Positions 2,340-54,591 of a stretch of DNA of 64,000 bases are shown here, in pieces (position 1 is the first letter of the stretch; each line of letters begins with the position of its first letter). This DNA comes from a virus, in the IMG/VR virus record IMGVR_UViG_3300002835_000018; one strand, 5' to 3'. The position numbers and the translations under genes are program-made. The notes under the pieces were generated by a model. The model did not search any database. It was not told where the DNA came from and saw only the letters and a list, made by a program, of their open reading frames with translations.

Positions 2340-2347
2340 GTGAGCAA

Positions 2348-3031: not shown

Positions 3032-3039
3032 GAGCAAAA

Positions 3040-3600: not shown

Positions 3601-3635
3601 TGTAGGCACAACTACATTATTTGGGGGTTAGAACA

Positions 3636-4038: not shown

Positions 4039-4068
4039 AAACAATAACCCAATTCTTAAGGGTTAAAA

Positions 4069-7000
4069 ATGCCTAATTGTATTGATCCACTAAGTTTGGG
4101 CATTAATCCATCTTATGAAGGTGAGATTTTTCTTTTTGGTGATTGTTCTTATACGGCAATAGAAAAAGATGGAAGTTTAAATTGGGAAACAAATGAAGAA
4201 TTAAAGGTTTATGGAGATTTTAGTACATGCACATCATCTTCTTGTAGTTGGACCTGGAATTTGGGCTACGGAGAACCAGGCTACTTTACATCATGGAGAA
4301 AGACATCTTCGTGCCCACAAGATGGCACATGTCTTTGTTCATATGAAGGATTTCCTAGTTTTAACGGAACGGAAAATCAAGTCGTATCTTATCCTTGTAT
4401 ATACCCAACTACAACTCAAGAACCAACAACTAGTACTTCTTCTACCACTAGTACTTCTTCTACCACTGGTACTTCTTCTACCACTGGTACTTCTTCTACC
4501 ACTGGTACTTCTTCTACCACTGGAACACCACTTACATCAGAACCTCCAGATCCAACCACACCACAACCCACTACTACTAATACCACTACTACAACTACAA
4601 CTACTTCAAATCCTTGTGCTCCTGGAGAATGGAATTGTTCTGGATATTGTAGACCTAAAGATCGATATAATTGTAGCGGGTGTGGAGATGCATGTTTAGA
4701 AGCACCTTTTGAAGATTGTTGTCCTAATCTTACTGGTGGTGGATTATCATGCACAGATTTGCTTTCTAACAATAATAATTGTGGTGGTTGTGGAATAATT
4801 TGTGCAGAAGGGGAAGTTTGTTGTTATGGAAATTGTATTACATTAGGAACAAATGAAAACTGTGCATCTTGTGGCGATTCAGTGCCAGAAGGTACGGTCT
4901 GTTGCGATCTTAATAATGATGGTATTTATGGATCAATTTCTCTTGACTATTGGAATCTAGGAAACCCTGGATCGTCTGATGATAATAATTGTGGATCATG
5001 TGGGAATGTGTGTGTTGCACCATATAGATGTAAAGACGGTGTGTGTACTGAAACAACAACATGTTTTGGTGGTTGTACTTGGGAATGGTTGGGGCCAGGA
5101 GGCTATTGGTATCAACTTAGTGATTGTAACCCATCATGTATTTGTGATTCTCCTACTGATGATGGAACTGAGTTTTATGAGTTTTTTGAATCTCCTTGTT
5201 ATTCTTTTGTAACAACGACTTCAGAACCAACTACAACGACTTCAGCACCAACCACAACGACTACAACCGCTAGTCCAACGACAACGACTACTACAACAAC
5301 AACCGATAGTCCAACGACTACTACGACTACTTCAGCACCGACTACAACGACTACAACCGATAGTCCAACGACTACTACGACTACTACGACTACTTCAGCA
5401 CCGACTACAACGACTACAACCGATAGTCCAACGACTACTACGACTACTACGACTACTTCAGCACCGACTACAACGACTACAACCGATAGTCCAACGACTA
5501 CTACGACTACTACGACTACTTCAGCACCGACTACAACGACTACAACCGATAGTCCAACGACTACTACGACTACTTCAGCACCGACTACAACGACTACAAC
5601 CGCTAGTCCAACGACAACGACTACAACCGCTAGTCCAACGACAACGACTACTTCAGCACCGACTACTACAACAACAACCGCAAGTCCAACGACTACAACG
5701 ACTACTACAACTACAACCACTACAACCACAAATCCTGATCCATGTTATGGGGTTTTTTGTGGTTTTGAACCAGGTTGGGATTGTTGTGGTGGAAATTGTT
5801 ATAACATATTTGGCGTTGATCAAATGATTTGTTGTGATGGACAACTAGTGTCTGGTAGATCTGGATCAACTTGTGGTTCATGTGAAAATGCTTGCCCAAG
5901 CGGTCAAGATTGTTGTACGCAAAACGGAGATGTTTTTACAAATTATTGTGCAGATTTAGAGTCAGATCCACTTAACTGTGGTTCATGTGGCAGTTATTGT
6001 GCTTCACCAAGTGTTTGTTGCCAAGGTCAATGTCTTCCAGATCCATCTCTTGTTACTAGTTTTCAAAAATGTTGCAATGGAACAATAATAGATTTTAAAG
6101 ATGACACAAATAATTGTGGTGATTGTGGAATAGTTTGTGGTGCAGGAGAAGCATGTTGCAATGGAATATGTATAGATATACTAAGCGACAAATATAATTG
6201 TGGATCATGTGGTTATAATTGTCCTCCAGAGTCTTATCCAGATTGCGTAAATGGTGTTTGCGTTACTGCTTCAACAACTACCACAACTACCACAACTACA
6301 ACGACTACCACAACTACAACTACAACTACAACTAGTACAACATCAAATCCACAATGCGATTATTCTTTAGCTCATTGGGTAGATCCAAACAACTTTGATC
6401 AAGATGAAATTCCACCTAAAACATCCTTTACTATAGGTATTTCAGAAACATTAGAGCTTAAATTTAGGGTTAGGGATATATATCAAGTAAATATAAATAG
6501 TGAAAATTTTAGTACTGTTACTCAGTGGCCTTGGTATCCATTGCCTTCGCCAGAAAATACATATGGCATATATGAAAAGGTAAATAATCAATATGCCTTA
6601 ATGGAGTTTGTTACTACTGGTACAATCGGAAGTAAATTCTATCTTTTAAATGAACAAGAATATCCATGTGTATCTGATAATTTTGCTTATTATAAATTCA
6701 TATCGCCTCCAGTTGGAACATATGTAATAAATTTTTACATGAATGATGGTTCATCTTTTGCACTTACGATTGATGTTATTGAAGGAACTACAACAACTAC
6801 AGATCCAAATACTACTACAACCACTACCACAACTGCTGCACCAACTACTACAACGACTGCAAGTCCAACGACTACGACTACAAGCACAACCGCAAGTCCA
6901 ACCACAACGACTACAACGACTACAACCGCTAGTCCAACCACAACGACAATAGCACCAACTACCACCACCACAACAACTACAAGTCCAACCACTACTACTA

Positions 7001-7404
7001 CAACGGTAAGTCCAACAACGACTACTTCTGCACCAGTTACTACAACTACTACAACATTAGCCCCAAATATAAATTCAATAAAATATAATTCTGGAGAAAC
7101 CTTAGAATTAAGGGCTACTGATGATTACTACGATGTAGATGGAAGAGCTATAGATTTTATATCTAATGATTATCCAGTATTAAATAACATAACAATTTTA
7201 TTTTTTGTAGATGGCAAAATAAATTTTGTAAAAACTTGTTTAGCTATAAATGCAACCACAATTAGATTAGAACTTGACCATCTTGAATTATCTGCTATTG
7301 GTGCTGGAAGATGGTCTTACGAAATAAGAGCAGTTTTTCTAAGTGGACATATTGTGACATTGGCTATTGGTAATTTAATTATAACTCCTGCTTTTGGAGA
7401 TTAA
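4069..7404 (+). CDS. Mucin-like Thr-rich and Cys-rich virion protein with C-terminal anchor-like domain
   Basis: Four long Thr/Ser/Pro tracts, 7-8 NCGxCGxxC (STIG1-like) repeats, two CxWxW modules, and a C-terminal domain shared with the next gene. Confidence 0.65.
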   Translation: MPNCIDPLSLGINPSYEGEIFLFGDCSYTAIEKDGSLNWETNEELKVYGDFSTCTSSSCSWTWNLGYGEPGYFTSWRKTSSCPQDGTCLCSYEGFPSFNGTENQVVSYPCIYPTTTQEPTTSTSSTTSTSSTTGTSSTTGTSSTTGTSSTTGTPLTSEPPDPTTPQPTTTNTTTTTTTTSNPCAPGEWNCSGYCRPKDRYNCSGCGDACLEAPFEDCCPNLTGGGLSCTDLLSNNNNCGGCGIICAEGEVCCYGNCITLGTNENCASCGDSVPEGTVCCDLNNDGIYGSISLDYWNLGNPGSSDDNNCGSCGNVCVAPYRCKDGVCTETTTCFGGCTWEWLGPGGYWYQLSDCNPSCICDSPTDDGTEFYEFFESPCYSFVTTTSEPTTTTSAPTTTTTTASPTTTTTTTTTDSPTTTTTTSAPTTTTTTDSPTTTTTTTTTSAPTTTTTTDSPTTTTTTTTTSAPTTTTTTDSPTTTTTTTTTSAPTTTTTTDSPTTTTTTSAPTTTTTTASPTTTTTTASPTTTTTSAPTTTTTTASPTTTTTTTTTTTTTTNPDPCYGVFCGFEPGWDCCGGNCYNIFGVDQMICCDGQLVSGRSGSTCGSCENACPSGQDCCTQNGDVFTNYCADLESDPLNCGSCGSYCASPSVCCQGQCLPDPSLVTSFQKCCNGTIIDFKDDTNNCGDCGIVCGAGEACCNGICIDILSDKYNCGSCGYNCPPESYPDCVNGVCVTASTTTTTTTTTTTTTTTTTTTTSTTSNPQCDYSLAHWVDPNNFDQDEIPPKTSFTIGISETLELKFRVRDIYQVNINSENFSTVTQWPWYPLPSPENTYGIYEKVNNQYALMEFVTTGTIGSKFYLLNEQEYPCVSDNFAYYKFISPPVGTYVINFYMNDGSSFALTIDVIEGTTTTTDPNTTTTTTTTAAPTTTTTASPTTTTTSTTASPTTTTTTTTTASPTTTTIAPTTTTTTTTSPTTTTTTVSPTTTTSAPVTTTTTTLAPNINSIKYNSGETLELRATDDYYDVDGRAIDFISNDYPVLNNITILFFVDGKINFVKTCLAINATTIRLELDHLELSAIGAGRWSYEIRAVFLSGHIVTLAIGNLIITPAFGD
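4429..4523 (+). repeat. 18-bp tandem repeat x5 (ACTRGTACTTCTTCTACC; T[S/G]TSST)
   Basis: Read directly from the sequence. Confidence 0.9.
5212..5730 (+). repeat. Thr-tract minisatellite with three identical 63-bp units (5332, 5395, 5458) plus degenerate copies
   Basis: TCAGCACCG recurs at 5332, 5395, 5458, 5521 and 5575. The unit encodes SAPTTTTTTDSPTTTTTTTTT. Confidence 0.9.
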
Positions 7405-7405
7405 C

Positions 7406-8050
7406 ATGGCATTTGAAATGGGTATAAGCTTATCTTTTGGTAAAAATTATGAAAATTGCACAACTTTATCTGCACAATTAATAAACGGAGATGGAACAAA
7501 TTACAATACTCCATATACAACTGGATTTGTAAATTTGACCAACGGTTATTTTTTGTTTACTCCAACAATACCAACATCTTTTAGAGGTGCTATCAAATTT
7601 TATTGTGCGACTGAATTTCTTGGTGCTTTAGCTATTAATCCAGAAGAATATGAAAACATAGATGTTAAAATTAGCACAAGGTGTAGTTCTACTGGAACTG
7701 GGGTTCCTACGCTAACAAATCCAATACCAATTAATCCAGCAGATCCTATAGAATTAAGATTAACTGATGATTATTTAGTAGAAGAGTCTAGATCTATAGA
7801 TATAACTTCTGTAAATTGGCCAGACCTAACTGATTCTTCCACCAGTTTTATAATTGATTCAATGCCAACATTTACTAAGGCAGCAGAATTGCTCAATGCA
7901 ACATCGTTAAGGGTTGAGTTAAGCAATGAAGAACTTCAGCAGATCGGTGCTGGTAGATGGTCTTATGAATTTAGGTCAGTTTTGTCAAATGGTCACATAA
8001 TAACCCTAGTAGTTGGCAATATTATAATCGTTCCACCATTTACTGATTAG
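7406..8050 (+). CDS. Virion structural protein sharing its C-terminal domain with the mucin-like protein
   Basis: ELR.TDDY...R.ID and IGAGRWSYE.R.V...GHI.TL..GN.I are shared with 4069..7404. GGAG RBS before ATG 7406. Confidence 0.6.
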   Translation: MAFEMGISLSFGKNYENCTTLSAQLINGDGTNYNTPYTTGFVNLTNGYFLFTPTIPTSFRGAIKFYCATEFLGALAINPEEYENIDVKISTRCSSTGTGVPTLTNPIPINPADPIELRLTDDYLVEESRSIDITSVNWPDLTDSSTSFIIDSMPTFTKAAELLNATSLRVELSNEELQQIGAGRWSYEFRSVLSNGHIITLVVGNIIIVPPFTD

Positions 8051-8055
8051 AATAC

Positions 8056-8061
8056 GGTGTA
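8056..8061 (+). promoter_or_regulatory. GGTGTA motif (candidate late promoter element)
   Basis: Intergenic copy upstream of the neck gene. Confidence 0.4.
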
Positions 8062-8092
8062 TTATTAGTTGTAATTATTACTAAATAACGAG

Positions 8093-8629
8093 GTGATTAT
8101 GTACTGGCAAGCAGAATTCATAACACTGTTAAGGGTTTTGATAGACGATCTTTCATCGCCACAAACATATAATGACAAAAGACTTACGCAAGTTTTGGCA
8201 GTAGCTGCTCAATTAGTTACAAATGAATTAAATTTTCCTAGTAAGTTTAGGGTTGATATTCAAGCTTTAACTATTGAACCAAGTCCAGTAGATAGAGAAT
8301 CAACCAGAGATGAAAATTTTATAAATTTAGTTTGTATAAAAGCAGCGTGTTTAATAGATCGTGGAGAAACTAGAAAATCTGTTGGTCAAGGAATTGCTAT
8401 TAGAGATGGTAGTTCTTCTATTGATCTTCGTGGCTCAATGGATGGTAGACTTAGATTGCTTGAAAAGGGCTGGTGTTCAGTATATGATGACACTAAGCTA
8501 GAATATCAGGCAAACAGAAATGGAACAATTGCTGGTGCAGCCATTATGACTCCATTCAGAGTTTTTGCTGGCTTTAGAGATATGGCGTACTATCCTTACA
8601 GTAGAGATGGTAGAAACTTTATTCAATAA
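8093..8629 (+). CDS. Putative head-tail adaptor
   Basis: LRVLIDD...Y.D..L N-terminus and helical pattern resembling gp6/gp15-type adaptors; lies upstream of other neck genes. Confidence 0.5.
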   Translation: MIMYWQAEFITLLRVLIDDLSSPQTYNDKRLTQVLAVAAQLVTNELNFPSKFRVDIQALTIEPSPVDRESTRDENFINLVCIKAACLIDRGETRKSVGQGIAIRDGSSSIDLRGSMDGRLRLLEKGWCSVYDDTKLEYQANRNGTIAGAAIMTPFRVFAGFRDMAYYPYSRDGRNFIQ

Positions 8630-8642
8630 CGAGGGTTTTTTC

Positions 8643-9101
8643 ATGGGAACAATTCATATTATTGGTGCTGGCATAGTAAATGGTTATTCAACAATTAATC
8701 CCACTGAAGGAAATCCAAGTGGCCAAATAATCAATTATGTTAGCGAAGGAAGAGCTACGACATCAGATACATTGGATTATCCAGCGATAGAAAGAAGTTT
8801 TGCTATTCCTATCGTTGATATTTCAAGGCCAGCAGTTTTTTCAGATGGTTCTTCAACCATACTTGCTTCTAATACAAGTCAGCAAATATTTTCTCCTAAC
8901 GATGACAGGCATTATTTATATTTTCAAAATGAGTCAGGCAACGATATGTATGTGGATTTTGGAATACCAGCAAACACTACTTCTTCTTTTAAAATACCAG
9001 CAAGTGGCAATTTAGTCTTTGATAGTGCTTTTATTCCAGCCTCCACTGTTAACATTATTTGTGCCACAAGTGGTGCTCGATTTATTGCAAAAGAAGCTTA
9101 A
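8643..9101 (+). CDS. Small beta-rich virion protein
   Basis: SQQIF..N..R.YLYFQN.S..DMYV.FG pattern seen in phage structural proteins. GAGG RBS before ATG 8643. Confidence 0.45.
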   Translation: MGTIHIIGAGIVNGYSTINPTEGNPSGQIINYVSEGRATTSDTLDYPAIERSFAIPIVDISRPAVFSDGSSTILASNTSQQIFSPNDDRHYLYFQNESGNDMYVDFGIPANTTSSFKIPASGNLVFDSAFIPASTVNIICATSGARFIAKEA

Positions 9102-9110
9102 TAAAAAGTG

Positions 9111-9139
9111 TTGATCATCTATATTGGCTGTTGTATCAT
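9111..9139 (+). promoter_or_regulatory. Sigma70-like promoter for the glycosyltransferase gene
   Basis: TTGATC - 17 nt - TATCAT, upstream of an AAGGAGG RBS. Confidence 0.45.
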
Positions 9140-9161
9140 ATAAAGGTACAGCAGCCTTTTT
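9126..9161 (+). terminator. Intrinsic terminator
   Basis: GGCTGTTGTA / TACAGCAGCC stem (one G-U pair) followed by TTTTT. Confidence 0.65.
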
Positions 9162-9186
9162 GTTTTAGGAAATAGAAGGAGGAAAT

Positions 9187-10974
9187 ATGATTCTTACAAT
9201 TGGCATGGCTACATACGATGATTTTGATGGGGTTTATTTCACTTTAGAAGCATTAAAAGCATATCAGGACTTAGAAGATGTAGAGTTGGTTGTGGTTGAC
9301 ACCAAAAAAGAATCTTGTAAAGACACAGCAAATACTTGCAATGCTCTTGGTGCAAAATACTTTCATAGGCCAGATAAAATTGGAACATCTGCCTCAAGAA
9401 ATCATGTGTTTGAAGTAGCAACTGGCAAATTTGTAATGTGTATTGACTGCCATGTTTTATTAGTTAAGGATGCTGTTAAAAAACTTAAAGAATATATTTA
9501 TGCAAACATTGATACTAAGGATTTAATTCAAGGCCCATTACTCTACGATGATCAAAAAAATATATCGACTCACTTTAAACCTGAGTGGCGTGGACAAATG
9601 TATGGAACTTGGGAAACAGATTCTAGGTATTTAACTCAAGAAAAGTTTGAAATACCTATGCAGGGTCTAGGATTATTTTGCATGAGGAAAGATGCTTGGC
9701 CAAAATTTAATTCCAACTTCCGTGGTTTTGGTGGTGAAGAAGGATACATTCAAGAAAAAACAAGGCAAAATGGTGGAAAAGCCATATGCTTATCTTGGTT
9801 AAAATGGATTCATAGATTTGCAAGACCAAAAGGTGTTCCATACCCATTAGATCTTAAAGACAGAATTATAAATTATTTAATTGGATGGTCTGAGTTGGGT
9901 ATGAATTATCAGGAGGTTTTGGAGTTTTTTAAGAAGTCTTTAAACACAAATCAAATAGGTGGGATACTTAATGAGTTTTCAAAAGCTTTAGGAACACCAA
10001 TGTCAATTTCTCCTGCCAAAGACTATAAAACAAGTAAAGTTGCTTATATATTAGACGATGAAAATAGTGAAACCTATAAAAATTTTAATTGGGCGTACCC
10101 TAAAATAACCTTAGAAGACAAGTCTTTTATTTCAGCTATGACAGACTTTGTTTCTAGAGATGAGGATTATTGTTTAATTGTAAAATCTGGTGAAGTAATT
10201 GATTTAAAAACTATAGAAAAAATCGATGAATGGATTGTTATTAAACAAAAAACTTTAAAAATAGCTTCATTAAATGAAATTGAAAAAAAATCTTTTAAAA
10301 GAAAAAATGAATTTTTCTCATATAGAATTGCAGATAATGTAGACATAGATCAAAGCAAGTCATTAATAATAAGTAAAGATTTTGCAAGATTGATATTAAA
10401 CAAAAATCAAAATTTAAAATTATCGGAATTAGCAAGAATAAATAATGTAATGCCATTTGTTTTAACAAAAAAAGAAATTCCATATAGGGTAAACCCAAAT
10501 TTAAATCATTTAGATAATGTATCTGGTGGTTTAGATTTTTGTGACATTAGAGAAATTGTTTGGGCAGCAAAAGGCAAATGGTGTTTAGATATTTCTTCCA
10601 TATGTCTTCAAACCACATTAGCATTATGCCAAAAAGGTCTTGGTATCGTAAGAGTTTACGACTTTCAAAATCAAGATAAAGAAACCCTTAAAAAAGAACT
10701 TGATGTATTTGGTTATGCTAATTTTATTATTGCAGACTTAGATGAAAACATAGAAGCTCCAGAAAATGGTGAAAGAGTTTTATTAATCAATTACAAAAAT
10801 ATTCCAGATTATTTAAAAGATTTTGCTTATGAAAAACAGGCATCGTTTTTAAGAAGTGGAGATGTTTTAATAATTGTTCATCCAGAAGAAGAAATTAAAG
10901 AAGTTTTTTCTGATGTTGCAGACTACAAGACTCAGTTTATTTCAGATAAGTGTTTAATAGCAGTAAAGTCATAA
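9187..10974 (+). CDS. GT-A fold glycosyltransferase (GT2/GT27-like) with additional C-terminal domains
   Basis: LTIGMATY, VVVD, SRN, DCH (DxH), PMQGLGLF, FGGEE and HRF motifs. The C-terminal 330 aa are unassigned. Confidence 0.8.
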   Translation: MILTIGMATYDDFDGVYFTLEALKAYQDLEDVELVVVDTKKESCKDTANTCNALGAKYFHRPDKIGTSASRNHVFEVATGKFVMCIDCHVLLVKDAVKKLKEYIYANIDTKDLIQGPLLYDDQKNISTHFKPEWRGQMYGTWETDSRYLTQEKFEIPMQGLGLFCMRKDAWPKFNSNFRGFGGEEGYIQEKTRQNGGKAICLSWLKWIHRFARPKGVPYPLDLKDRIINYLIGWSELGMNYQEVLEFFKKSLNTNQIGGILNEFSKALGTPMSISPAKDYKTSKVAYILDDENSETYKNFNWAYPKITLEDKSFISAMTDFVSRDEDYCLIVKSGEVIDLKTIEKIDEWIVIKQKTLKIASLNEIEKKSFKRKNEFFSYRIADNVDIDQSKSLIISKDFARLILNKNQNLKLSELARINNVMPFVLTKKEIPYRVNPNLNHLDNVSGGLDFCDIREIVWAAKGKWCLDISSICLQTTLALCQKGLGIVRVYDFQNQDKETLKKELDVFGYANFIIADLDENIEAPENGERVLLINYKNIPDYLKDFAYEKQASFLRSGDVLIIVHPEEEIKEVFSDVADYKTQFISDKCLIAVKS

Positions 10975-10983: not shown

Positions 10984-11009
10984 GGTGTATTTATTGTAAG
11001 GAGTACACC
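10984..11009 (+). promoter_or_regulatory. GGTGTA motif with inverted TACACC enclosing the RBS
   Basis: GGTGTA-tttattgtAAGGAG-TACACC, then ATG 11013. Confidence 0.5.
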
Positions 11010-34965: not shown

Positions 34966-36213
34966 ATGGCAATCACCCTTAATGGAACGACTATAATTCC
35001 AACACCGTTTGTAACAGCACAAACAGAAAATGAATTTAAAGAAAATGGCAAAGTAAAAAAGAGCGTATTAACAGTAACCTTAAAGGGAAAAGCACTTTCT
35101 CTTGAAAAACAAAATGGGGTAGTTGTAGATCTTGCACAAGCTGATGAAAAAGGAAGACTTGGTTATATAAATAGTGCTCATTCACTAATAGAAGGATTGG
35201 TTGTTCATTCTGTAAATGATCTATTTGTTACTGGAACAATGAGTGCCCCTTTTCTTTCTGGTAAGGTGAAATTAAAATCAAAATCTTATCAAATTGATGC
35301 GAGCAATGTTTTTGCTGATTACACAATAGTTTTTGAAAAAGTTTTATTTGAATCACAAGATGTTGATGAAAATTGGTCTTTAGATCCAGCAGATGAGTAT
35401 AACAGATTTGTAAAAGTAACAAGATCTAGAAGTATTACATTAAATAGTTCTGAAACTGCAACTTATCAATTAGCTATAGCAAAATTGCCAGCTTCATCTA
35501 GTTTTACTGATGGTGCAAGTTATTTGCCAGCCACAACAGGTTCGGCTTACAATAAAACGACTAACTATACAGTTAACACTGAAAAAAACTCAGTTGAATG
35601 CACAGAAAGTTGGACTGTATGCAATACAAGTGCTTTAGTTGAAGAAACATATTCTATAAAAGAATCTTCTGACTCAATTTATAAAACTTTCTCAAAACAA
35701 ATAAGTATAAAAGGACTTGCTGGTGAAGGAGGTGGAGATAAGTACGCAAACGCAAACGCATATTTTTCAACAATGACAATTCCAGAAATTGGAGATTCCT
35801 ATGAAGGTTCTGACACAGATAAAATAAAATCTATTTCTGTTTCAAGGAACATTATAAGTGGAACCATAACGGTAAACATGGATGCTTCTGGTGGAATTGA
35901 AGAGGATGGTGAGATTTATAGGACTGTAGATATAACTGATAATGTACCAACAGAATTTTATGCTTCTATTGCAGCAATTGGAAAAGAGTCAGGACCAATA
36001 TTACAAAGATTTGGAACTAAAAAACAGGGTAGTTTGTCTGTAAACATTACGGTAATATATAAGGATGGAGGTTATAATGAACCATCCGTTAGTAAGTATA
36101 AGCCTTCAGATGGAACCAGTTATTTTGTTGATAAAGATGAAATGACTTTTGATGAAAGAACTGGAAAAGTTACCAGAAGTATTACTTGGACTTATGGTGG
36201 GGAATTTGTTTAA
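34966..36213 (+). CDS. Tail tip / distal tail protein, paralog B
   Basis: Shares NG...P, KGK, DYTI, DE.W, GP..Q and G..TR motifs with the upstream gene. Confidence 0.5.
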   Translation: MAITLNGTTIIPTPFVTAQTENEFKENGKVKKSVLTVTLKGKALSLEKQNGVVVDLAQADEKGRLGYINSAHSLIEGLVVHSVNDLFVTGTMSAPFLSGKVKLKSKSYQIDASNVFADYTIVFEKVLFESQDVDENWSLDPADEYNRFVKVTRSRSITLNSSETATYQLAIAKLPASSSFTDGASYLPATTGSAYNKTTNYTVNTEKNSVECTESWTVCNTSALVEETYSIKESSDSIYKTFSKQISIKGLAGEGGGDKYANANAYFSTMTIPEIGDSYEGSDTDKIKSISVSRNIISGTITVNMDASGGIEEDGEIYRTVDITDNVPTEFYASIAAIGKESGPILQRFGTKKQGSLSVNITVIYKDGGYNEPSVSKYKPSDGTSYFVDKDEMTFDERTGKVTRSITWTYGGEFV

Positions 36214-36239
36214 AAACAATTTTATTGGCGGGTCACAAA

Positions 36240-39200
36240 ATGGCATTTGATGTTCAAACATTTCTTGGTCTTAAGGTTATAGATTTTTCATCTAGTGTTG
36301 GATGGAATGATGCTGGTTCAACTTTAACAGTAAAAATGGCTCCCGAAGATGGTCAGACTATAGAGTCTTACACTATTGGTAAAGCTATGGACTTTAGTTT
36401 TAAAGGAAAATTTACCTTTGTTGGTTTTTTAGATAGGGTTGTAGAAAGGCATAGTAGCGGTGGAATTACTTATGAAGCTACATTAAGTGAGGGAAAAGAA
36501 ATCTTAAGAAATGTCCAATGTGTAGTTGGAAATTTTTACGGAAATAAAGATGATGGTGACTGTTTAGTTGATAATTATTTTAATGTTTTTAGATATTATG
36601 AAAAAAGTGGTTATGGACTAGCAAATTCAAATGCATCTGGAATGAGTGTTAATGCATTTGTTGCTGGCGTTGGAGCATTGTCTGGCATATGTGGGGTTAG
36701 AAGTGGCAATGAACGATATGGCGTTGATATATCTGCAATATTAACAGGTCTTCCTGATTACTATAGAATACCTGGGCCAAAAGTTGGCTTGCTAGATGTT
36801 GTTTCACAAATATGTGATGCTACTGGTCATATGTGGAGATTAGTTTTAGAAGGAAAAACTTTTAGGATAAAATTGCAATCTCTTGCACAAGATGCAGCCA
36901 ATCAAAAAGTTGTAGATAGCATAAAGACAATGGCGAAAAATAAAAAGTGCATATCTTGGGATGCTGGAAATGAAGCAGCAAATGGTGTTACTTGTAATTT
37001 TGTTGTGTGGGGTGGGGCAAAAGAACAAACCATATTGTTCGATAGAGGTTTTGATACATATACTGATCCAAATTCAGTTATTAAATACTATTGGGGTGTT
37101 GACATAAATGGAACCCCTCAGACAAAAATTAATTATGAGGTTAAAACATATTATAATCTTCTAGGACAAGCTTACACTTTAGAAGTAATGGAAAACATAA
37201 ATATTCCAGCTATTGGTATTGAAGATATAGAAGGCGGTAACTATTACTTAACAAATTCTTTAGAATTACAATGTGTTATGGGTTCTCAAGAATCTTGGGA
37301 ATTTTATCTTGAACTTTATGAACCAGGAAGATATGCAAATATTTTTTTAAGAGGGGCTAGAGATTGGGATGCTGATCGTCTTTATTGGAGCCGTTTTGGT
37401 GGTGCTGGTACAACTACATTAAGAAGATATTTTTCAGAAAAAGAAAATGATATTGGCGTAAGAAGAGCAGCAAGATTGTATTCATATTTAAAAAGTTATT
37501 GTGAAACATATTGGGGAAAACAATTTTTAGTTCAAGTAAATGGTGGGGGTAGTTCTAATCTTAAAGGAAGAGCGAATAACATCGGTCCTGATGGTGAAAC
37601 TAGCAAAACTGGAGGATTAACAGTAAGAAATAAACTAGAAAAAAAATCACCACAAGACTCATTAACGGATGAACAAAATGGAACATACAACATTCTTCCA
37701 TCTCAAAGTGGGTGGATGGACCCAACTCAAGTTGTTTCTAGTCCATTTGCAAGCATTCCAACACCAATATTTGATGGACAATTTAAAGACCCCAAAGGAA
37801 AACTGCAAAATTGGGCAGTCATACAAGCAACACCAGGAACATATCAAATAGATGACACAAGTGCAGACTGCTATGTGCTAGGAAATTACATTTATTTAAA
37901 ATTGACCGTTTCTGATAAATATATCATGGTTGATGGAAAAGAACATATTCATGTTTCTTTGCCACAATCTGTACTTTTACTAGGTCCAGAAAACGAAAGA
38001 TCAGAACTTGGGCATGATCCATTAGCAAGATTTCTTTTTGGGATATTTAATGGGGTAACTCAGATAGGTTCGTCTGATCTTTTCAAAGTTGGATTTATAC
38101 CAATCACTCCACGATTAATGGCAATAGGTCTTGTTGCTACCACTAATGATGCATATGGTCCTTGGTACATGAATAGTGGTAAAGGTGGTCTTACTAAAGT
38201 TGAAAATGATTCAAGCCTTACACCTTGGGAATTTGGCTCAGGTGCAAATTTAGGAGAAGTTTTTTCAAAAAAAATAAAAGACATACAACCAATTGACAAG
38301 TTTGAAACTGGAAGCTTGACAATGGTATCTGCTCCAGAGCATAGTCTTGGAGATGAGTTGGTTAAAAACGGTGCTATTGTAACATCTGTTGGTGTAAATT
38401 ATGGTCCTAATGGAGTAACAACCCAATACTCTTTTAGAACATTTACGCCAAGATTTGGTGTAACATCAGAAATTGTAATAAATAGAATGAGGCAACAAAC
38501 AGCAAGACAAAATGAAGACAGAAGAAATATTTTAAAAGCCTATATGGACACAATTGCACGACAACAGTCTGCAAATCGTTCAGAAATGGGCGGTAAGATA
38601 AGATCTTTCTTCTTAGACTTTTTAGGTCGAAGACATGACAGAATGAGTCCACATGCTTTAATGGTTATGGGTATTGGTATAGCTAATGCTGGTCCTGGTG
38701 CATATTTTGGTATTGGTATGTACTCAAGAACAAAAACTCTTGGTGCATCATATAAGCAAAATGAATCAATGAAAGATCTTGCTGATAAAGAGCTTGATTC
38801 TGTACAAATAAATTCTAAAGCAGTCGCATCAATGGATACATTATATGTTCCATTTAGAAATAATTTTGCAAATAGTGGTGGAGCATTTGAATCAACATCT
38901 GGATACTTGCCACATTGCTGGCCAGTAACACCAGATGTTTTAGTTACTCAAAAATTTACAAATTATAGAGATCCACAATATGAAAGAGGCGATAAATTAG
39001 TTGATATTAGACAAGGTAAAGTTCCAACATCTATAACATACAATCCTTTTAAAAGATTTTGTCATTTTGACACATTGATAGATTGTAATCAAAACTATTG
39101 GGATAATCATAATGAACCAACAAAATATTTTTCAACCGCAGGATCTGTAGGTGCTGGCTCTCAACCTATAGATGTTAATGCTATTGCTCTTCGTGGACCA

Positions 39201-41039
39201 CTGATGGTTTCTGGATGGGGAGTTGATCTTTGGTCAGGTTATGTTGTACCAAATGCAGATCAAGGATTTATCAATGATTATGGTTTAACACACAAGTTTA
39301 CTCCAGATCCTTATGTTGTTCCAAATGCTCCTTGGGAAGCAGCACAAAACAAACTAACTGGCCCAGTTGATCTTGTATGGGATTCAGCAAGGGGTGTGTG
39401 GACTTCTCATGATGTTGTTAGGGTGCAATCATCGAATAATATTGCAGGAAGCAATTTCACATGCAATACATCTGGAAGACTTTCGTATGCATTTATGCAA
39501 ATGTATACTAATGATCTGTTGAGTAATCAGTATGTTCAAGTCTATAATCTTTCAAGCAAACCTCAAATAAGAAATACTCAAACTCTTGCACACTATTCTG
39601 TTTTTGACAATAGGTGGTATATAAAGGGCGAAGGTTCAATACCTAGATACAATGATTTAAAAGTACAAGCAAAAATATATGAGGCATTATGTCCAAAAGA
39701 AGCAAATTGTAAAATCAACATCACAAGTGGTGTCCCAACAGAGGGAGAGAATAAAAGTGCATATAATTACTATGCAGATTTTGAAGTAACAGAACATGTA
39801 ACAGATATTTACACAGTCCCGATACGACAGGATGATGGCAAAACAATAGAATGTCCAGAACATAAGTCTGTAGATGTCATACGAACATTTGGTATGAGTG
39901 AAGGTGTGCCATATGTTGATGGTATAACAACATGTCCAGATGGAACAATAGTTCCAATCATAAATACATTGTGGTTTTGGCATGGTCTTGCAAAAGAAGT
40001 AATTTTGCCAGAAGAGGGTTCAGAATGTGAGGGGCATGAAGATCCTGATACTACTAGTACTACTAGTGCCCCAACTACTACTCCAACCACTACTCCTGCA
40101 CCACCAGGATATTGTGTTGTTGAAACAGGAGTGGGAACACAGTGTTATAACTGTAGTGCAGATTGTGGAGCCGAACTTGTTTTACAAGGACCATACCCAC
40201 TAGCTGAATGCGAATCATATTTACCAGGACTTAATGCTGGTTGCTCAATGACACTTGTTTTTGATGATCCATGCTTTAGTTGTTATTATGATGCAAATGG
40301 AGAATATACTGGTCCAAATAAAGTTGAAAATTGTAATATGGATAGGGATCAGCAAAATGCAAATATACCAGCATGTACTACTACTACTACGCCAGCACCT
40401 TGTGATACATACTACTTATATCAAAATGAAGAGACATTTTGTCATTATTGTTCAACAGCACCAAATGGCACTGGAGGATATCCAGGAACATTAATCGATG
40501 GAGTTTGTGAAAATGGTTGCGAAGCTGCAAGAGCAATAGCTGATTCTGAAGACCCAAGATGTCAAGGTTGCTATAAGATTACTGGTGGTTGTGATCAAAG
40601 CACTTGTTACACATGTAGAAGTTGTGAAACTGGTGAATCGGGAGAGTATACAAATTTAGATGATTGTATGCAACAAGCAGATTCACAAAATGCTCAATGT
40701 GATCCAATATGTACAACAACCAGTACCACTACTACAACTCCTGATCCTACAACTAGTACTACAACAACTACTCCTGCCCCAACATGCGTAACTGTTGTTG
40801 AAGCTGTTGTATGTTCCCCACAAAGTCCTGGTGATGGTTATGTTAGTGGTGGTGGCGATATATGGACAAAAAGTGTTAGTGTTGCAAAATGTTCAACACA
40901 ACCTCTTCCTCCAGCGGTTTTTGGCTCAAGTTTTCCAAATTTGGAAGTTAAACTACTAAGAGCAGAGCTTAAAGCTTTGACTAAAAAGTTTGTTCAATTG
41001 GTTGATGTCCTTGAGAAAAATGACATAAAGGTGTTTTAA
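36240..41039 (+). CDS. Baseplate hub / central tail fibre with Cys-rich and Thr-rich C-terminus
   Basis: Hub-like N-terminus (FLG..V..F.S.VGW....STL.V), Cys-rich C-terminus with Thr/Pro tracts, terminal coiled coil. Start taken at ATG 36240. Confidence 0.6.
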   Translation: MAFDVQTFLGLKVIDFSSSVGWNDAGSTLTVKMAPEDGQTIESYTIGKAMDFSFKGKFTFVGFLDRVVERHSSGGITYEATLSEGKEILRNVQCVVGNFYGNKDDGDCLVDNYFNVFRYYEKSGYGLANSNASGMSVNAFVAGVGALSGICGVRSGNERYGVDISAILTGLPDYYRIPGPKVGLLDVVSQICDATGHMWRLVLEGKTFRIKLQSLAQDAANQKVVDSIKTMAKNKKCISWDAGNEAANGVTCNFVVWGGAKEQTILFDRGFDTYTDPNSVIKYYWGVDINGTPQTKINYEVKTYYNLLGQAYTLEVMENINIPAIGIEDIEGGNYYLTNSLELQCVMGSQESWEFYLELYEPGRYANIFLRGARDWDADRLYWSRFGGAGTTTLRRYFSEKENDIGVRRAARLYSYLKSYCETYWGKQFLVQVNGGGSSNLKGRANNIGPDGETSKTGGLTVRNKLEKKSPQDSLTDEQNGTYNILPSQSGWMDPTQVVSSPFASIPTPIFDGQFKDPKGKLQNWAVIQATPGTYQIDDTSADCYVLGNYIYLKLTVSDKYIMVDGKEHIHVSLPQSVLLLGPENERSELGHDPLARFLFGIFNGVTQIGSSDLFKVGFIPITPRLMAIGLVATTNDAYGPWYMNSGKGGLTKVENDSSLTPWEFGSGANLGEVFSKKIKDIQPIDKFETGSLTMVSAPEHSLGDELVKNGAIVTSVGVNYGPNGVTTQYSFRTFTPRFGVTSEIVINRMRQQTARQNEDRRNILKAYMDTIARQQSANRSEMGGKIRSFFLDFLGRRHDRMSPHALMVMGIGIANAGPGAYFGIGMYSRTKTLGASYKQNESMKDLADKELDSVQINSKAVASMDTLYVPFRNNFANSGGAFESTSGYLPHCWPVTPDVLVTQKFTNYRDPQYERGDKLVDIRQGKVPTSITYNPFKRFCHFDTLIDCNQNYWDNHNEPTKYFSTAGSVGAGSQPIDVNAIALRGPLMVSGWGVDLWSGYVVPNADQGFINDYGLTHKFTPDPYVVPNAPWEAAQNKLTGPVDLVWDSARGVWTSHDVVRVQSSNNIAGSNFTCNTSGRLSYAFMQMYTNDLLSNQYVQVYNLSSKPQIRNTQTLAHYSVFDNRWYIKGEGSIPRYNDLKVQAKIYEALCPKEANCKINITSGVPTEGENKSAYNYYADFEVTEHVTDIYTVPIRQDDGKTIECPEHKSVDVIRTFGMSEGVPYVDGITTCPDGTIVPIINTLWFWHGLAKEVILPEEGSECEGHEDPDTTSTTSAPTTTPTTTPAPPGYCVVETGVGTQCYNCSADCGAELVLQGPYPLAECESYLPGLNAGCSMTLVFDDPCFSCYYDANGEYTGPNKVENCNMDRDQQNANIPACTTTTTPAPCDTYYLYQNEETFCHYCSTAPNGTGGYPGTLIDGVCENGCEAARAIADSEDPRCQGCYKITGGCDQSTCYTCRSCETGESGEYTNLDDCMQQADSQNAQCDPICTTTSTTTTTPDPTTSTTTTTPAPTCVTVVEAVVCSPQSPGDGYVSGGGDIWTKSVSVAKCSTQPLPPAVFGSSFPNLEVKLLRAELKALTKKFVQLVDVLEKNDIKVF

Positions 41040-44127: not shown

Positions 44128-44892
44128 TTACTCCAGTTCGTATAATCCTTCCAATGATCCTTCTTTTATCAATTCTAGCGTATCAAGAAGTTTTTTCAAG
44201 ATAGTTCTCATATAAAAGCCAGAACTGTTACCGCTTATGTTTTTTATTCTTATTAACTTCATTCCAGAATTCAATAGCAATCCAGTTTTTTTAGTGTCAC
44301 TTTTTAATTGTTTTTCATATTTTTCCGTTCCCCAAATAGCCTTAAAGTGTGTTGGGCCATCAACTTCTATCCCTACTTTATATTCGGGAATATAAATGTC
44401 GATATGTTGTCTTTCGCCTATCACATAGAATTCTTTATGGAAATCTGCTTTAATTTTATTTTGTCTTATTCCGTTAATTAAAAACTTTTCAAGCTTAGAA
44501 CCATTTTCAGCAGCTTCTCTAACTGATTCTGCTGCTTTTTTTTGCATTTCTTCAATTTTACTTAAAGGCATAGCCTCCCAATTTTTCTTAGAAACAATCG
44601 ACCTTCTTTCTCTTTCATTCTTGTCCATTGATTCCCAAGAATTGGCCATAGAGTCACTTATCTTTATCTTCGTTTCTTCTGTTAGCTTTTTACCTTTAGT
44701 TGGATGAAAACATCTTCCTGTTGCTAAAGCTTTTGCTTGAGCTTCTGACTTATCTCTTAATGGTATACCAAATGAAACTAATGCCCTTCTTATTTTGTTG
44801 GGATAAGTCTCTGAAACTTCCGCTATTTCATAAGTTGATTGTTGTAATTCAACATAATGTTTATGCAAAAATTCATATGTTAACTTTTTCAT
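44128..44892 (-). CDS. Free-standing homing endonuclease-like protein (HTH, NUMOD3-like and Vsr/DUF559-type nuclease)
   Basis: STYEIAE..RRAL..FGI (HTH), KGKKLTEETKIKISDS (NUMOD3-like), IDIYIP....IEVDGPTH (Vsr-like). Confidence 0.7.
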   Translation of the reverse strand: MKKLTYEFLHKHYVELQQSTYEIAEVSETYPNKIRRALVSFGIPLRDKSEAQAKALATGRCFHPTKGKKLTEETKIKISDSMANSWESMDKNERERRSIVSKKNWEAMPLSKIEEMQKKAAESVREAAENGSKLEKFLINGIRQNKIKADFHKEFYVIGERQHIDIYIPEYKVGIEVDGPTHFKAIWGTEKYEKQLKSDTKKTGLLLNSGMKLIRIKNISGNSSGFYMRTILKKLLDTLELIKEGSLEGLYELE

Positions 44893-45325
44893 GTTTTTTC
44901 CCCACTATGTTATCTAAGTCAAAGTTATAAGCTATTCTAGCTTTAATGTTCCATGAATCATATATCGATTTACTATGATCTTCACTTCTTGCAATAAGTT
45001 CTATTCTCTTATTAGCATAAATGTTTTTGATGTCTTCATACTCATGCACACCGTAAACCCATTCTAAATCCCACACATAAAAATATACGATTTTAATCTT
45101 TGGGTTCAACAACATACTTTTAGCAGAGTATAGGCATGTAGCCACATGATAATCGGCATTTGAATACCACATGTCATAATATGTAAGTATACTAAAGCCA
45201 AAGCTTTTATTAAGAAACATTTCTTTGTTTGAATATACTACAATGTTGTGTTTTGAACATTGATTTCTTATATCAAAAAGAAGCTGATCTCTTTTAATTT
45301 TATTTACAGCAATTGCTATTTCCAC
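44873..45325 (-). CDS. Glycosyltransferase-like fragment / hypothetical protein
   Basis: YFYVWDLEW and IARS pattern resembling a GT-B N-terminal half. Confidence 0.35.
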   Translation of the reverse strand: MEIAIAVNKIKRDQLLFDIRNQCSKHNIVVYSNKEMFLNKSFGFSILTYYDMWYSNADYHVATCLYSAKSMLLNPKIKIVYFYVWDLEWVYGVHEYEDIKNIYANKRIELIARSEDHSKSIYDSWNIKARIAYNFDLDNIVGKKHEKVNI

Positions 45326-46034
45326 TAAACAATTCCTCTCTTACTATTCCTGTTGTATTAACAGAAGAGTTTAATCTTATGTGGTCCTTCATTACAGCAC
45401 ATATGCCTTCATGTTTTTCTTTTGGTGCTAAAATAATCATTGTGTTCTCATCCATCTTTCCACCCCAAGCACCAGACAATCTACAATCAGAATAAATCTT
45501 GTAAATAAATTCATTTGCAGAATTTGGATCTAATTGAGTTTTTATTCTCCAATAAGAATCTATTAACTTTCCCATAAATTTAAAGTCATTGTCTATATAT
45601 GCATTATAAGCATCATCCACCATTTTATGAATAATTCCAATATTAAAATTTTCTATTGGTTTTACTTTACTGTATTTAAAATATTTTCTTCTTATGTGAA
45701 ATATTAACAGTTTATTAAAAAAATCGCTAGAGCTATCTATTTCGACATTATTCCATATTGTTGAAGATTTATTTATACAATTAAATTTTCCGAATATAGA
45801 TGTGTAACAAGAAGGGAAATCATCAGAATCTATCAAATTTAACATTTTTGATTTTGCTGTACTATAATTTTTAAAACATCTTTTATAAAAGTCTTTTGTT
45901 TTTTTGTCTATAAAGAAAGATTTAACATTTCCAAATTTGCTTAAGTAACTAAAATTACACGATGAAAAAATCATGCATTTTGTTGAATACTCTCCAATTA
46001 TAGAAATTGGTTTTGGTACTTTATATATTATCAT
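45300..46034 (-). CDS. Degenerate GHMP sugar kinase (HddA-like)
   Basis: MII.K.P..IS..G start, G.L....W..K and GAWGGK motifs. The GLGSS and GAGGGG loops are eroded. Confidence 0.55.
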   Translation of the reverse strand: MIIYKVPKPISIIGEYSTKCMIFSSCNFSYLSKFGNVKSFFIDKKTKDFYKRCFKNYSTAKSKMLNLIDSDDFPSCYTSIFGKFNCINKSSTIWNNVEIDSSSDFFNKLLIFHIRRKYFKYSKVKPIENFNIGIIHKMVDDAYNAYIDNDFKFMGKLIDSYWRIKTQLDPNSANEFIYKIYSDCRLSGAWGGKMDENTMIILAPKEKHEGICAVMKDHIRLNSSVNTTGIVREELFSGNSNCCK

Positions 46035-46723
46035 TAATTTTCCAAGATTTTATCTATTAATTCTAGGTCTATTGTTTCAAGATGTTCTTTTGGATCAGGA
46101 TCTTTTGGTTCTAAATAAAAACATTCGTGTTCTGAAAACAATGTTTCTTTATTATCTAATGAATCAACTGTTGATTGTGTTATATAATCTATGTTTTTCT
46201 CAGGATAGTTTTCAGTATATATTGGGTGTTTTTTACACTCATTAGCTAAAAAACTACAGAAGTTTGAAGAGTACTCACTTATTGCCTCTTGAACATATAA
46301 CGGCACTAAGTACGACCTCATTTGCACAACTTTATCGTCTTGTATTTGATCGCAAAATGATTTAAAGGATTTGCCATAACATATTGATCTTGGGCTTATG
46401 TAAATTCTTTTATTGGAAGAAAATTTTTCACAAATTGCATAAGCAAGTTTTTTGCTTTTTCTTATAGAGTCTATTTTATAATGTTCTAAAAGTGCAGCAT
46501 TATTTATTTTTATTATTTTTGGACATATTCTTGCAACATAATTATACATTTCTTTTGCTATGTCACCACATTCCCCATCGTCTATAGCTATCACATTATA
46601 TTCGTTATTATTTAGTTCTTCAGATATCCACCATAAAGACTTTTTAATAACATCTGGAGATTGGCCATATCCTAATAAAATGCTTAATATTTCTTTGTTA
46701 GATCCATCGCAACATTGGTACAT
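46034..46723 (-). CDS. GT-A-like hypothetical protein
   Basis: LSILL...VIAIDDG motif; otherwise divergent. Confidence 0.35.
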   Translation of the reverse strand: MYQCCDGSNKEILSILLGYGQSPDVIKKSLWWISEELNNNEYNVIAIDDGECGDIAKEMYNYVARICPKIIKINNAALLEHYKIDSIRKSKKLAYAICEKFSSNKRIYISPRSICYGKSFKSFCDQIQDDKVVQMRSYLVPLYVQEAISEYSSNFCSFLANECKKHPIYTENYPEKNIDYITQSTVDSLDNKETLFSEHECFYLEPKDPDPKEHLETIDLELIDKILEN

Positions 46724-50279: not shown

Positions 50280-50280
50280 T

Positions 50281-54590: not shown

Positions 54591-54591
54591 A

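Follow-up and report, generated by a model that had tools for sequence, protein, structure and literature searches.

To our knowledge, dense glycosylation of threonine tracts of the mucin type is regarded as a eukaryotic trait ("mucin-type" is used loosely here; in the strict sense it means alpha-GalNAc), and, as far as we know, phage virion glycosylation has been proven only in a few actinobacteriophages. In mycobacteriophages, it was reportedly described by Freeman et al. in Cell Host Microbe in 2023. The glycosyltransferases (GTs) of family GT60 from Dictyostelium and Trypanosoma use mucin-like Thr-rich proteins as acceptors, and we know of no solved GT60 structure for comparison. The streptococcal Pgf-type system works outside the cytoplasm with lipid-linked sugars and membrane enzymes of the GT-C type. 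Its acceptor sites are Ser/Thr-rich disordered regions of surface proteins, which are O-glycosylated (PMC12041528, PMC5856776). Only GT27 and GT60, both of them Ser/Thr polypeptide GT families, have DxH in place of DxD, and in GT27 the C-terminal His (C-His) binds the metal (Taujale et al. 2020, PMC7185993). GT60 has prokaryotic members (PMC7185993). According to PMC12619734, GTs encoded by mycobacteriophages act in the cytoplasm on structural proteins of the phage itself, with glycans at the capsid and tail-tube C-termini. Our literature search found no report of a GT27-like system for poly-Thr in bacteria or phages.

Here, we analysed a stretch of 64,000 nucleotides of viral DNA (the window), in which a GT gene lies downstream of a gene for a protein with long Thr tracts (Table 1). 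This large phage comes up repeatedly in lakes: it is near-complete in 14 DNA runs dated 2016-2024. We propose with moderate confidence, on computational support, that ORF 9187-10974 encodes a soluble cytoplasmic polypeptide O-glycosyltransferase acting on poly-Thr linkers. The pairing of this enzyme with Thr tracts is found again in numerous phages and bacteria, so a sugar coat that the phage itself puts on its appendages is probable.

Table 1. Features of the window discussed in the text
Feature	Position	Strand	Basis or remark
Display protein, 1111 aa, multi-domain, four Thr/PTS tracts, proposed acceptor	4069..7404	+	Translation, composition, Stig1/MXAN_6577-like matches
Thr/PTS tract 1	4405..4626 (aa ~113-186)	+	TGTSST repeats, then T run
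Cys-rich block A, Stig1-like modules	4627..5223	+	PF04885 and NF041328 matches
Thr tract 2, about 175 aa	5224..5748	+	T4-14 runs, SAP/DSP/ASP spacers
Cys-rich block B, Stig1-like modules	5749..6255	+	Best Pfam stretch aa 665-732
Thr tract 3, about 30 T	6256..6357	+	Translation, composition
Thr tract 4	6778..7062	+	T runs, AAP/ASP/SP/VSP/APV spacers
C-terminal domain, ~110 aa, conserved	7063..7401	+	Similarity to next ORF, relatives
218-aa ORF, C-terminal domain common to 4069-7404	7394..8050	+	Homologue at 8208-8864 of relative L001
Pair of small conserved ORFs (178 aa, about 152 aa)	8093..9101	+	Synteny kept in every close relative
Terminator-like hairpin, 12-bp stem then T run	9126..9156	+	30 nt before GT start
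GT-A catalytic domain, aa 1-270	9187..9996	+	Pfam GT2, model pLDDT 91, GT27 best structural match, invariant residues
Middle domain, small GT-A-like alpha/beta fold	10033..10479 (aa ~283-431)	+	
C-terminal domain, putative class I methyltransferase fold	10483..10971 (aa ~433-595)	+	
Post-tape-measure protein, 1617 aa, second candidate acceptor	36186..41039	+	Two short Thr tracts near C-terminus
GT cluster: three or four GT-B (GT4-type), one GT2, IspD-like nucleotidyltransferase	44128..54590	-	

The GT ORF (595 aa, plus strand) starts 1783 nt past the end of ORF 4069-7404. Its first motif, GTSASRN..ATGKFVMCIDCH (aa 66-89), is followed in order by PMQGLGLF (157-164), FGGEE (181-185), NGG (195-197) and HRF (209-211). 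The features of the GT-A domain are the DxH (D87 and H89), the QGxG loop (159-162), the GEE (183-185) and the C-His (H209). Across 26-36 diverse homologues, the family alignments show no substitution of D87, H89 or H209. D87-C-H89 lies at the end of beta4 and H209 on a late strand, and this fits the secondary structure of the model. An assignment as inverting or retaining from the GEE motif was dropped because the sequence cannot decide it. Pfam Glycos_transf_2 (PF00535) scored 43.7 bits over aa 5-107 (gathering cut-off 23.3), and it matched 26 of 26 family members. Neither a signal peptide nor a TM segment was found in the protein.

The closest 3D similarity of the predicted GT-A domain was to GT27 catalytic domains, with 13-16% identity; examples are mouse GalNAc-T1 (8v9q), human GalNAc-T2 (2ffu/6nqt) and T. 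gondii GalNAc-T3 (8uhv). The count of GT27 entries in the Foldseek lists is inflated because the PDB heavily over-represents GT27. The phage GT shares with GT27 the DxH metal motif and the C-terminal His in a GT-A domain. In contrast, it has no HMM-level similarity to GT27 and no Glyco_transf_7C match (among 26 family members, PF02709 matched one, at E 0.09), and it has GT-A-like and methyltransferase-like domains where GT27 has a ricin-type lectin (Ricin_B_lectin gave no Pfam match). Moreover, GT27 enzymes are type II Golgi membrane proteins, whereas the phage GT is predicted to be a soluble, cytoplasmic enzyme of a prokaryotic/viral family. An earlier note on this DNA compared the motif order of this enzyme with that of GT27; the likeness holds for the structure and for the DxH/C-His, and it does not hold at the sequence level, where the Pfam match is to GT2 only and a lectin domain is missing.

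The phage GT resembles GT60 (UDP-GlcNAc:polypeptide alpha-GlcNAc-transferases of protists and some prokaryotes) in the DxH and in the proposed glycosylation of Ser/Thr in polypeptides. However, the GT60 model in Pfam ("GlcNAc" glycosyltransferase, which we take to be PF11397) was absent from 9187-10974 at E<=0.01 and from 26 of 26 family members at E<=1. The likeness to the Pgf-type system is that Ser/Thr-rich low-complexity linkers are O-glycosylated in bacteria; the phage GT differs in being a soluble GT-A enzyme without a membrane part. The mycobacteriophage systems come from another host and habitat, whereas the present phage is a freshwater, low-GC phage. The acceptors given for them in PMC12619734 also differ from the one proposed here, a multi-domain display protein with long linkers of poly-Thr. 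Judging from the models, the GT family is a compact, previously unnamed structural neighbour of the GT27/GT60/GT7/GT2-chondroitin group. Among 1.84 billion representatives, it comprises 1,305 clusters (50% identity) at E<=1e-30 and 3,087 at E<=1e-3, and its phage and bacterial members are 45-57% identical. A tblastn search with the GT against 50,697 deposited phage genomes gave no match.

ORF 4069-7404 is open throughout (1111 codons without a stop), and a signal peptide was not found in its product. The protein contains 288 Thr (25.9%), 104 Ser, 78 Pro and 73 Cys. Its four Thr/PTS tracts lie at about aa 113-186, 386-560, 730-763 and 904-998, and the longest consists of T runs with SAP/DSP/ASP spacers over about 175 aa. 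This Thr-tract content is far beyond chance expectation; when all ORFs of the 64 kb window were tested, only 36186-41039 passed besides it. All four ACN codons are in use in the tracts. Tract 1 contains an 18-nt tandem repeat (4429-4523), and tract 2 contains 5.2 copies of a 63-nt unit with 92% matches. In related strains, these tracts vary in length in-frame, by 72 nt in tract 1 and by 15-nt and 24-nt indels in tract 2. The Cys-rich blocks between the tracts matched Pfam Stig1 (PF04885, E 3.7e-20, three stretches) and the NCBIfam model of an MXAN_6577-like Cys-rich protein (NF041328, E 7.8e-19). The C-terminus is 46% identical to that of the next ORF, 7394..8050 (E 2e-32). This domain is kept in relatives with differing N-terminal parts, and it is a possible virion-attachment module. 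In the same slot, relatives encode proteins that are built differently: globular domains are swapped, for example for lactonase propellers or ten Stig1 modules, and the T or PT linkers stay.

The GT gene is on the structural-gene strand, between the fibre genes and the tape measure. Three fibre genes with a tail-collar domain lie at 937-3031, and a relative of the 4984-aa ORF at 16742-31696 carries PhageMin_Tail. These genes support a virion-module setting for the GT. A GT gene in or near the structural module is one feature of virion-glycosylation systems of the mycobacteriophage type. The two ORFs at 8093..9101 are possibly head-tail joining proteins; the leads are weak, namely phrog_33692 (function unknown) and an SU10-adaptor cluster (language-model score 0.90). 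The ORFs flanking the GT had no Pfam, PHROG or PDB match, and a PDB sequence search with four flanking structural-module ORFs found nothing; the neck operon named in the earlier note is accordingly a putative label. PHROGs gave nothing for 4069-7404 or 9187-10974 and no specific function for the ORFs at 7.4-15.4 kb; 36186..41039 had no Pfam match. The cluster at 44128..54590, on the strand opposite to the GT, has PhoH interleaved, SSB flanking and polymerase genes around it. The earlier note suggested that the GTs at 44.9-54.6 kb perhaps extend the glycan. The phage encodes at least five GTs besides 9187-10974. The earlier note had pointed to a virion-module protein with Thr tracts separated by Cys-rich domains and to a GT with ordered motifs in the same module. 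We found the four tracts, the longest of about 175 aa, with Stig1-like blocks between them; all of the listed motifs are present in the stated order in an ORF that begins 1.78 kb downstream, and the tail-collar and PhageMin_Tail genes bear out the virion-module setting.

The terminator-like hairpin lies between the GT and the upstream genes, and this counts against the proposal. RNA-library contigs from a ~93-95% relative span the region. Contigs end near the hairpin in three runs and span it in one, which is weak, and we did not take them as expression evidence because contigs cannot prove transcription. The sequence GGTGTAWTWWT was considered as a late-promoter box and rejected, since allowing one mismatch gave no enrichment (21 versus 15.8 expected). 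The exact sequence occurs only twice, at 8056 and 10984, and these two sites alone are suggestive. A scan for sigma-70 promoters gave a count at or below expectation.

Of 73 phage loci, covered over +/-10 kb, 35 have the GT gene directly downstream of a Thr/PTS-tract gene, as do 21 of 71 bacterial loci; the GT gene is almost never upstream of one. Under a strict rule (ORF end within 3 kb, same strand, GT clusters at 70% identity), phages had a Thr-tract ORF upstream of the GT in 14 of 21 clusters and downstream in 0 of 21. Under a looser PTS rule, there were 39 ORFs in 218 kb upstream versus 1 in 206 kb downstream. The bacterial set had a single genome for each species, from Chloroflexota, Alphaproteobacteria, Gemmatimonadota, Actinomycetota, Desulfobulbales and Planctomycetota; strict Thr-tract ORFs numbered 18 in 143 kb (<=2 kb upstream) versus 3 in 308 kb further upstream. 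The bacterial partners are small proteins with a signal peptide, Stig1-like Cys-rich modules and poly-Thr tails, and this build matches the phage protein. Among cultured bacteria, Desulfofustis glycolicus DSM 9705 carries the gene pair; Bradyrhizobium diazoefficiens SZCCT0138 carries the GT. The pairing has a scattered distribution on the GT tree, with 24 state changes among 125 rows. No Thr-tract gene lies nearby in roughly half of the phage loci and in 70% of those from bacteria; among these loci are L016 (sister clade) and those of a podovirus-like clade in which a ~345-aa gene precedes the GT. A PhoH-based search found nothing beyond close relatives of this phage; therefore, it is a control within the lineage rather than a general background. 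The earlier note had proposed that the phage glycosylates its own Thr tracts. Structure comparison, in which GT27 was the best match of the GT-A domain, and co-occurrence, with the GT immediately downstream in many phage clades and several bacterial phyla, were both favourable, and the proposal is supported computationally.

The enzyme might instead act on a non-protein acceptor (LPS, teichoic acid, capsule, a lipid carrier or phage DNA), in which case adjacency to the Thr gene would reflect a shared "surface" neighbourhood, and a change of the host envelope glycan could, for example, block superinfection. We consider this unlikely. The nearest solved relatives by sequence agree with it: the family profile found no GT27 chain among all PDB sequences at E<=0.01 and matched TarP, TarS, a PglI-like enzyme and DPMS, whose acceptors are polysaccharides, teichoic acid or lipids, and this result counts against a polypeptide acceptor. 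With phmmer, the sole PDB match of the GT was the PglI-like enzyme, and it was marginal. There is no NCBIfam model specific to the GT or its homologues, and the weak NCBIfam similarities of the GT are to EPS, colanic-acid and PNAG GTs. Numerous family members lack a Thr-tract neighbour, and the classical phage GTs cited in PMC12619734 act on DNA or O-antigen. However, TarP and TarS (GT2 wall-teichoic-acid GlcNAc-transferases with poly-ribitol-phosphate as the acceptor) have DxD in place of DxH, carry trimerisation domains that are absent from the phage GT and are less similar to it in structure than GT27 is. DxH with C-His is a polypeptide-GT signature, and the GT has no TM segment for a membrane-bound acceptor. 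Its gene is in the structural and not the replication module; known phage DNA GTs occur in a different setting, and no base-hypermodification genes adjoin 9187-10974. Moreover, the same-strand, directional, immediately-upstream pairing occurs in unrelated phage clades and six bacterial phyla.

It is less probable still that the enzyme glycosylates other virion proteins (capsid, tail tube or fibre termini) and that the Thr tracts are unmodified flexible linkers. The glycan sites of mycobacteriophages and the podovirus-like clade, where the ~345-aa gene belongs to the structural module, are consistent with such acceptors, and Thr/Pro linkers are widespread without proven glycosylation. Nevertheless, this would leave the strong upstream enrichment in phages unexplained, and the bacterial homologues, which have no virions, follow small secreted poly-Thr proteins. 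Finally, the GT-A domain might add a second sugar to a glycan begun by the host or by an enzyme of the 44-54 kb cluster, as the elongating enzymes K4CP, B4GALNT1 and COLGALT1 among its structural neighbours and the other GTs of the phage would allow; this is very improbable, because its best structural matches are initiating enzymes, the bacterial member is often the sole GT next to the poly-Thr gene, and some bacterial members are fused to a second, different GT2, a natural elongator.

For the polypeptide O-glycosyltransferase that we favour, we infer the acceptor, the sugar donor, the timing and the biological role as follows. The N-terminal GT-A domain of the three-domain enzyme would be metal-dependent and would use a nucleotide sugar. 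The sugar would be moved directly onto Thr hydroxyls without a lipid carrier, in the cytoplasm and late in infection, while virions assemble or beforehand. The targets would be the poly-Thr linkers of 4069-7404 and probably also the 1617-aa tail protein. The glycosylated tracts would form stiff, hydrated, protease-resistant spacers that keep the Cys-rich (Stig1-like) modules off the particle. For the two C-terminal domains, GT-A-like and methyltransferase-like, possible roles are glycan elongation, glycan methylation or substrate docking.

If this is true, a widespread, well-delimited family paired with poly-Thr proteins in freshwater phages and six bacterial phyla would extend the chemistry to prokaryotes and their viruses. 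A function would be given to thousands of "GT2 family / hypothetical" genes, and the poly-Thr linkers that are common in environmental phage fibre proteins would be explained. Many aquatic virions would carry a glycan coat, with possible effects on adsorption, protease resistance, aggregation and grazing. More tentatively, at somewhat less than even confidence, we suggest a conserved prokaryotic/phage module for poly-Thr O-glycosylation, in which the GT-A family with DxH/C-His would be the initiating enzyme and a structural sister of GT27/GT60. With such a module, bacteria would modify small exported Cys-rich/poly-Thr proteins, and diverse tailed phages would build glycan-brush spacers on their virion appendages. 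It could be the prokaryotic counterpart, or even the source, of mucin-type O-glycosylation.

The ORF of the Thr-tract protein is open over all 1111 codons. Its product contains 288 Thr (25.9%), and also 73 Cys although it is made in the cytoplasm. In Pfam, both blocks that separate tracts 1 to 3 match Stig1 (PF04885; three stretches, E 3.7e-20), and in NCBIfam they match the entry "MXAN_6577-like cysteine-rich protein"; disulfide formation or metal binding by the Stig1-like modules presumably takes place only once the cell has lysed. Thus, translation, composition and domain matches agree with the earlier note, which had described four PTS tracts and Cys-rich blocks in this protein. The tracts draw on all four ACN codons. 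The tract DNA carries young tandem duplications, including a 63-nt unit (5.2 copies, 92% identity), and tract length varies among related strains by in-frame indels of 3, 15, 24 and 72 nt.

The window belongs to a large tailed phage of siphovirus type that has not been cultured. A near-identical IMG/VR contig of 109.7 kb was found, and at least 14 metagenome runs on freshwater or lake samples (2016 to 2024) contain near-complete copies of the phage. The features are collected in the table. Because a relative of the 4984-aa ORF carries PhageMin_Tail, this ORF was assigned as the tape measure, and its exceptional length implies a very long tail. The + strand gene order (fibres, Thr-tract protein, tape measure, tail proteins) shows that the module around the GT is structural, which supports a virion-module setting for the two genes. 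Searches with flanking ORFs gave no match that would bear out the narrower "neck operon" label of the earlier note. A strong terminator-like hairpin lies at 9126-9156 (12-bp stem with 6 GC pairs, then TTTTTGTTTT), 30 nt ahead of the start codon of the GT. In three runs, RNA-library contigs of a related strain are interrupted near 9089-9182; in one run they read across the hairpin. As a lead only, the hairpin may lower GT expression relative to the upstream genes. A proposed late box, GGTGTAWTWWT, has only two exact copies in the window (8056-8066 and 10984-10994), which flank the unit 8093-10974 comprising the two small ORFs and the GT; at one mismatch it is not enriched over shuffles in the window.

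Features of the window, with example loci from bacteria (L101 to L173) that carry a GT-family member
Feature	Position	Strand	Remarks
Three tandem paralogous fibre genes	937-3031	+	236, 227, 227 aa; each with phage tail-collar domain and Gp10_C-like C-terminus; upstream of Thr-tract protein
Thr-tract protein	4069-7404	+	1111 aa
Thr/PTS tract 1	aa ~113-186	+	TGTSST repeats, then T run
Thr tract 2	aa ~386-560	+	~175 residues; T4-T14 runs; sole breaks SAP, DSP or ASP
Thr tract 3	aa ~730-763	+	
Thr tract 4	aa ~904-998	+	
218-aa ORF	after Thr-tract protein	+	C-terminal 110 aa 46% identical to Thr-tract protein C-terminus
Two small conserved ORFs	between 218-aa ORF and GT	+	
GT	9187-10974	+	595 aa; start 1783 nt downstream of Thr-tract ORF
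Seven ORFs without annotation	between GT and 4984-aa ORF	+	
Tape measure	16742-31696	+	4984 aa; relative with PhageMin_Tail has 4805 aa
Large post-tape-measure proteins	downstream of 4984-aa ORF	+	one (36186-41039) with two short Thr tracts
GT4-type GT, weak	46684-47562	-	
IspD-like nucleotidyltransferase	47563-48249	-	within cluster 44128-54963
GT2	48239-49021	-	within cluster 44128-54963
GT4-type GTs	50281-51261, 51964-53094, 53091-54590	-	
PhoH	51261-52007	-	interleaved in GT cluster
SSB	54592-54963	-	flanks GT cluster
Bacterial example loci	L101 7299-9683, L108 1500-4143, L156 6508-8876, L165 6519-9314, L173 6062-9329		GT directly after small Tat/Sec-signal partner (Stig1-like Cys-rich modules and/or nearly pure poly-Thr)

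All GT motifs quoted in the earlier note were found, in the order stated, in the 595-aa translation. Pfam recognised only the nucleotide-binding half of the catalytic domain (GT2, aa 5-107, E 3.7e-11). An AlphaFold model built from 36 homologues reached pLDDT 91 and pTM 0.90, and its top Foldseek matches in the PDB were almost all ppGalNAc-transferases of GT27 (E 5.5e-13). An exhaustive alignment against 48,161 representative chains, independent of Foldseek, gave 18.2 for K4CP, 18.0 for RmlT, 17.9 for B4GALNT1, 17.1 for TarS, 16.7 for TarP and 14.1 for SunS. Two family alignments show no variation at D87 and H89 (the DxH motif), at H209, at Q159/G160 and E185, or in the W207-x-H-R-F block. According to Taujale et al. 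(eLife 2020, PMC7185993), DxH takes the place of DxD only in GT27 and GT60, these families have Ser/Thr polypeptide glycosylation in common, and the C-His ligates the metal in GT27. At the sequence level, the family profile matched TarP (1.3e-6), TarS, a PglI-like enzyme and DPMS among all PDB sequences and no GT27 chain. Glyco_transf_7C matched one of 26 family members (E 0.09) and the GT60 model none of the 26; neither a lectin domain nor a membrane anchor was found in the GT. Membership in GT27 or GT60 by sequence was rejected, since the profile search, Glyco_transf_7C, the GT60 model and the lectin result all speak against it. The GT family is compact, with clear limits: of 1.84 billion representatives, 1,305 match it at E<=1e-30, and relaxing the cut-off to E<=1e-3 raises the number to only 3,087. 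Phage and bacterial members share 45-57% identity over ~265 residues.

The earlier note had asked whether the GT co-occurs with Thr-tract proteins in related phages. In 80 viral loci with a GT-family member (flanks of up to 10 kb), stop-to-stop ORFs of 100 aa or more were scored for Thr tracts, a tract counting as strict when 15 residues included 10 T or more. At 70% GT identity, a same-strand strict Thr-tract ORF ended within 3 kb upstream in 14 of 21 clusters, as against 0 of 21 downstream; at 90% identity the counts were 14/37 and 0/34. Thus, co-occurrence was borne out. Many of the upstream ORFs end 10-60 nt ahead of the GT start. Under the looser PTS rule, 35 of 73 loci were positive, with 39 ORFs in 218 kb upstream versus one in 206 kb downstream; this rule adds the sister clade of the window phage, which has syntenic proteins with TP and STS repeats. 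Around PhoH in the same lineages, 299 kb contained two Thr-tract matches, apparently one gene at a locus edge. The phage partners carry adhesin-like domains (Calx-beta, InlB-B-repeat-like, FGE-sulfatase-like, Laminin-G and fn3). A podovirus-like clade (viral loci L047-L050, L055, L057, L061, L064, L065, L071-L075 and L078) has a family GT of ~285-300 aa whose immediate upstream neighbour is a ~345-aa gene; they lie in a conserved block of structural appearance, with a ~495-aa gene and other conserved ORFs upstream. Because no Thr tract was found near the GT in this clade, its acceptor may be a different virion protein.

In close relatives (GT 86-93% identical), the protein at the position of the Thr-tract protein ranges from 1030 to >2300 aa. 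It has Stig1 modules, beta-propellers of the lactonase type or an N-terminus resembling a protease; in every case its linkers are T-rich, and the same C-terminal domain or the 218-aa ORF comes next. With spacers conserved and heads not, the pattern agrees with a display protein or adhesin that is anchored to the virion. This hypervariable cassette upstream of the GT spans 856-7770 in the viral locus L001 and recurs in its relatives L005, L006, L008, L011 and L012. One relative encodes a protein of >2304 aa in which four lactonase-type beta-propellers accompany a protease-like N-terminus, another has ten Stig1 modules, and T or PT linkers connect the parts in all of them. For the 7-kb stretch in L001, metagenome gene calling gave no gene, and part of the tract is hidden by N; protein catalogues therefore probably contain too few proteins of this kind.

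The bacterial set comprised 78 loci (L100-L177), one genome per species. Within 2 kb upstream on the GT strand (143 kb in total), 18 strict Thr-tract ORFs were counted; regions lying further upstream had 3 in 308 kb, and downstream there were 10 in 466 kb. The carriers, from six phyla, are Chloroflexota, Alphaproteobacteria, Gemmatimonadota, Actinomycetota, Desulfobulbales and Planctomycetota. The partners inspected are small, with an N-terminal Tat/Sec-like signal (…SRRxxLK…, …VPAHA) followed by Stig1-like Cys-rich modules and poly-Thr, or by almost pure poly-Thr; judged from sequence, the phage protein is built in the same way. Mapped onto a tree of 125 GT domains, the Thr-tract trait is scattered over both halves with 24 state changes, and therefore does not reflect one inherited neighbourhood. 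Fusions are common among the bacterial GTs, the added part being a second GT2, DUF7164, ATP-grasp, a FemAB-like domain or a MauE/DoxX membrane domain (the last in a homologue of the GT at bacterial locus L100). Among cultured carriers, both genes of the pair occur in Desulfofustis glycolicus DSM 9705, and the GT occurs in Bradyrhizobium diazoefficiens SZCCT0138.

Phage particles assemble in the cytoplasm, out of reach of the host's periplasmic lipid-linked O-glycosylation. A soluble GT using nucleotide sugars directly would be the only plausible route to glycosylated virion proteins. We consider it rather probable that the N-terminal domain of the GT puts sugar straight onto the Thr tracts, which would then serve as stiff glycan-brush spacers. 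That the acceptor is a non-protein molecule seems unlikely. We give still less credence to another virion protein as acceptor, with the Thr linkers left bare, and a GT that elongates rather than initiates is the least probable of all. Under direct glycosylation of the Thr tracts, the GT is predicted from sequence and model to work like GT27 and GT60, as a DxH/C-His GT-A enzyme with Thr-tract partners, whereas by the sequence criteria tested it belongs to neither. The nearest phage precedent is mycobacteriophage virion glycosylation, which according to the summary in PMC12619734 targets capsid and tail-tube termini. Our literature search found no description of the GT family or of its poly-Thr pairing, and the bacterial pairs look like an undescribed maturation system for poly-Thr proteins.
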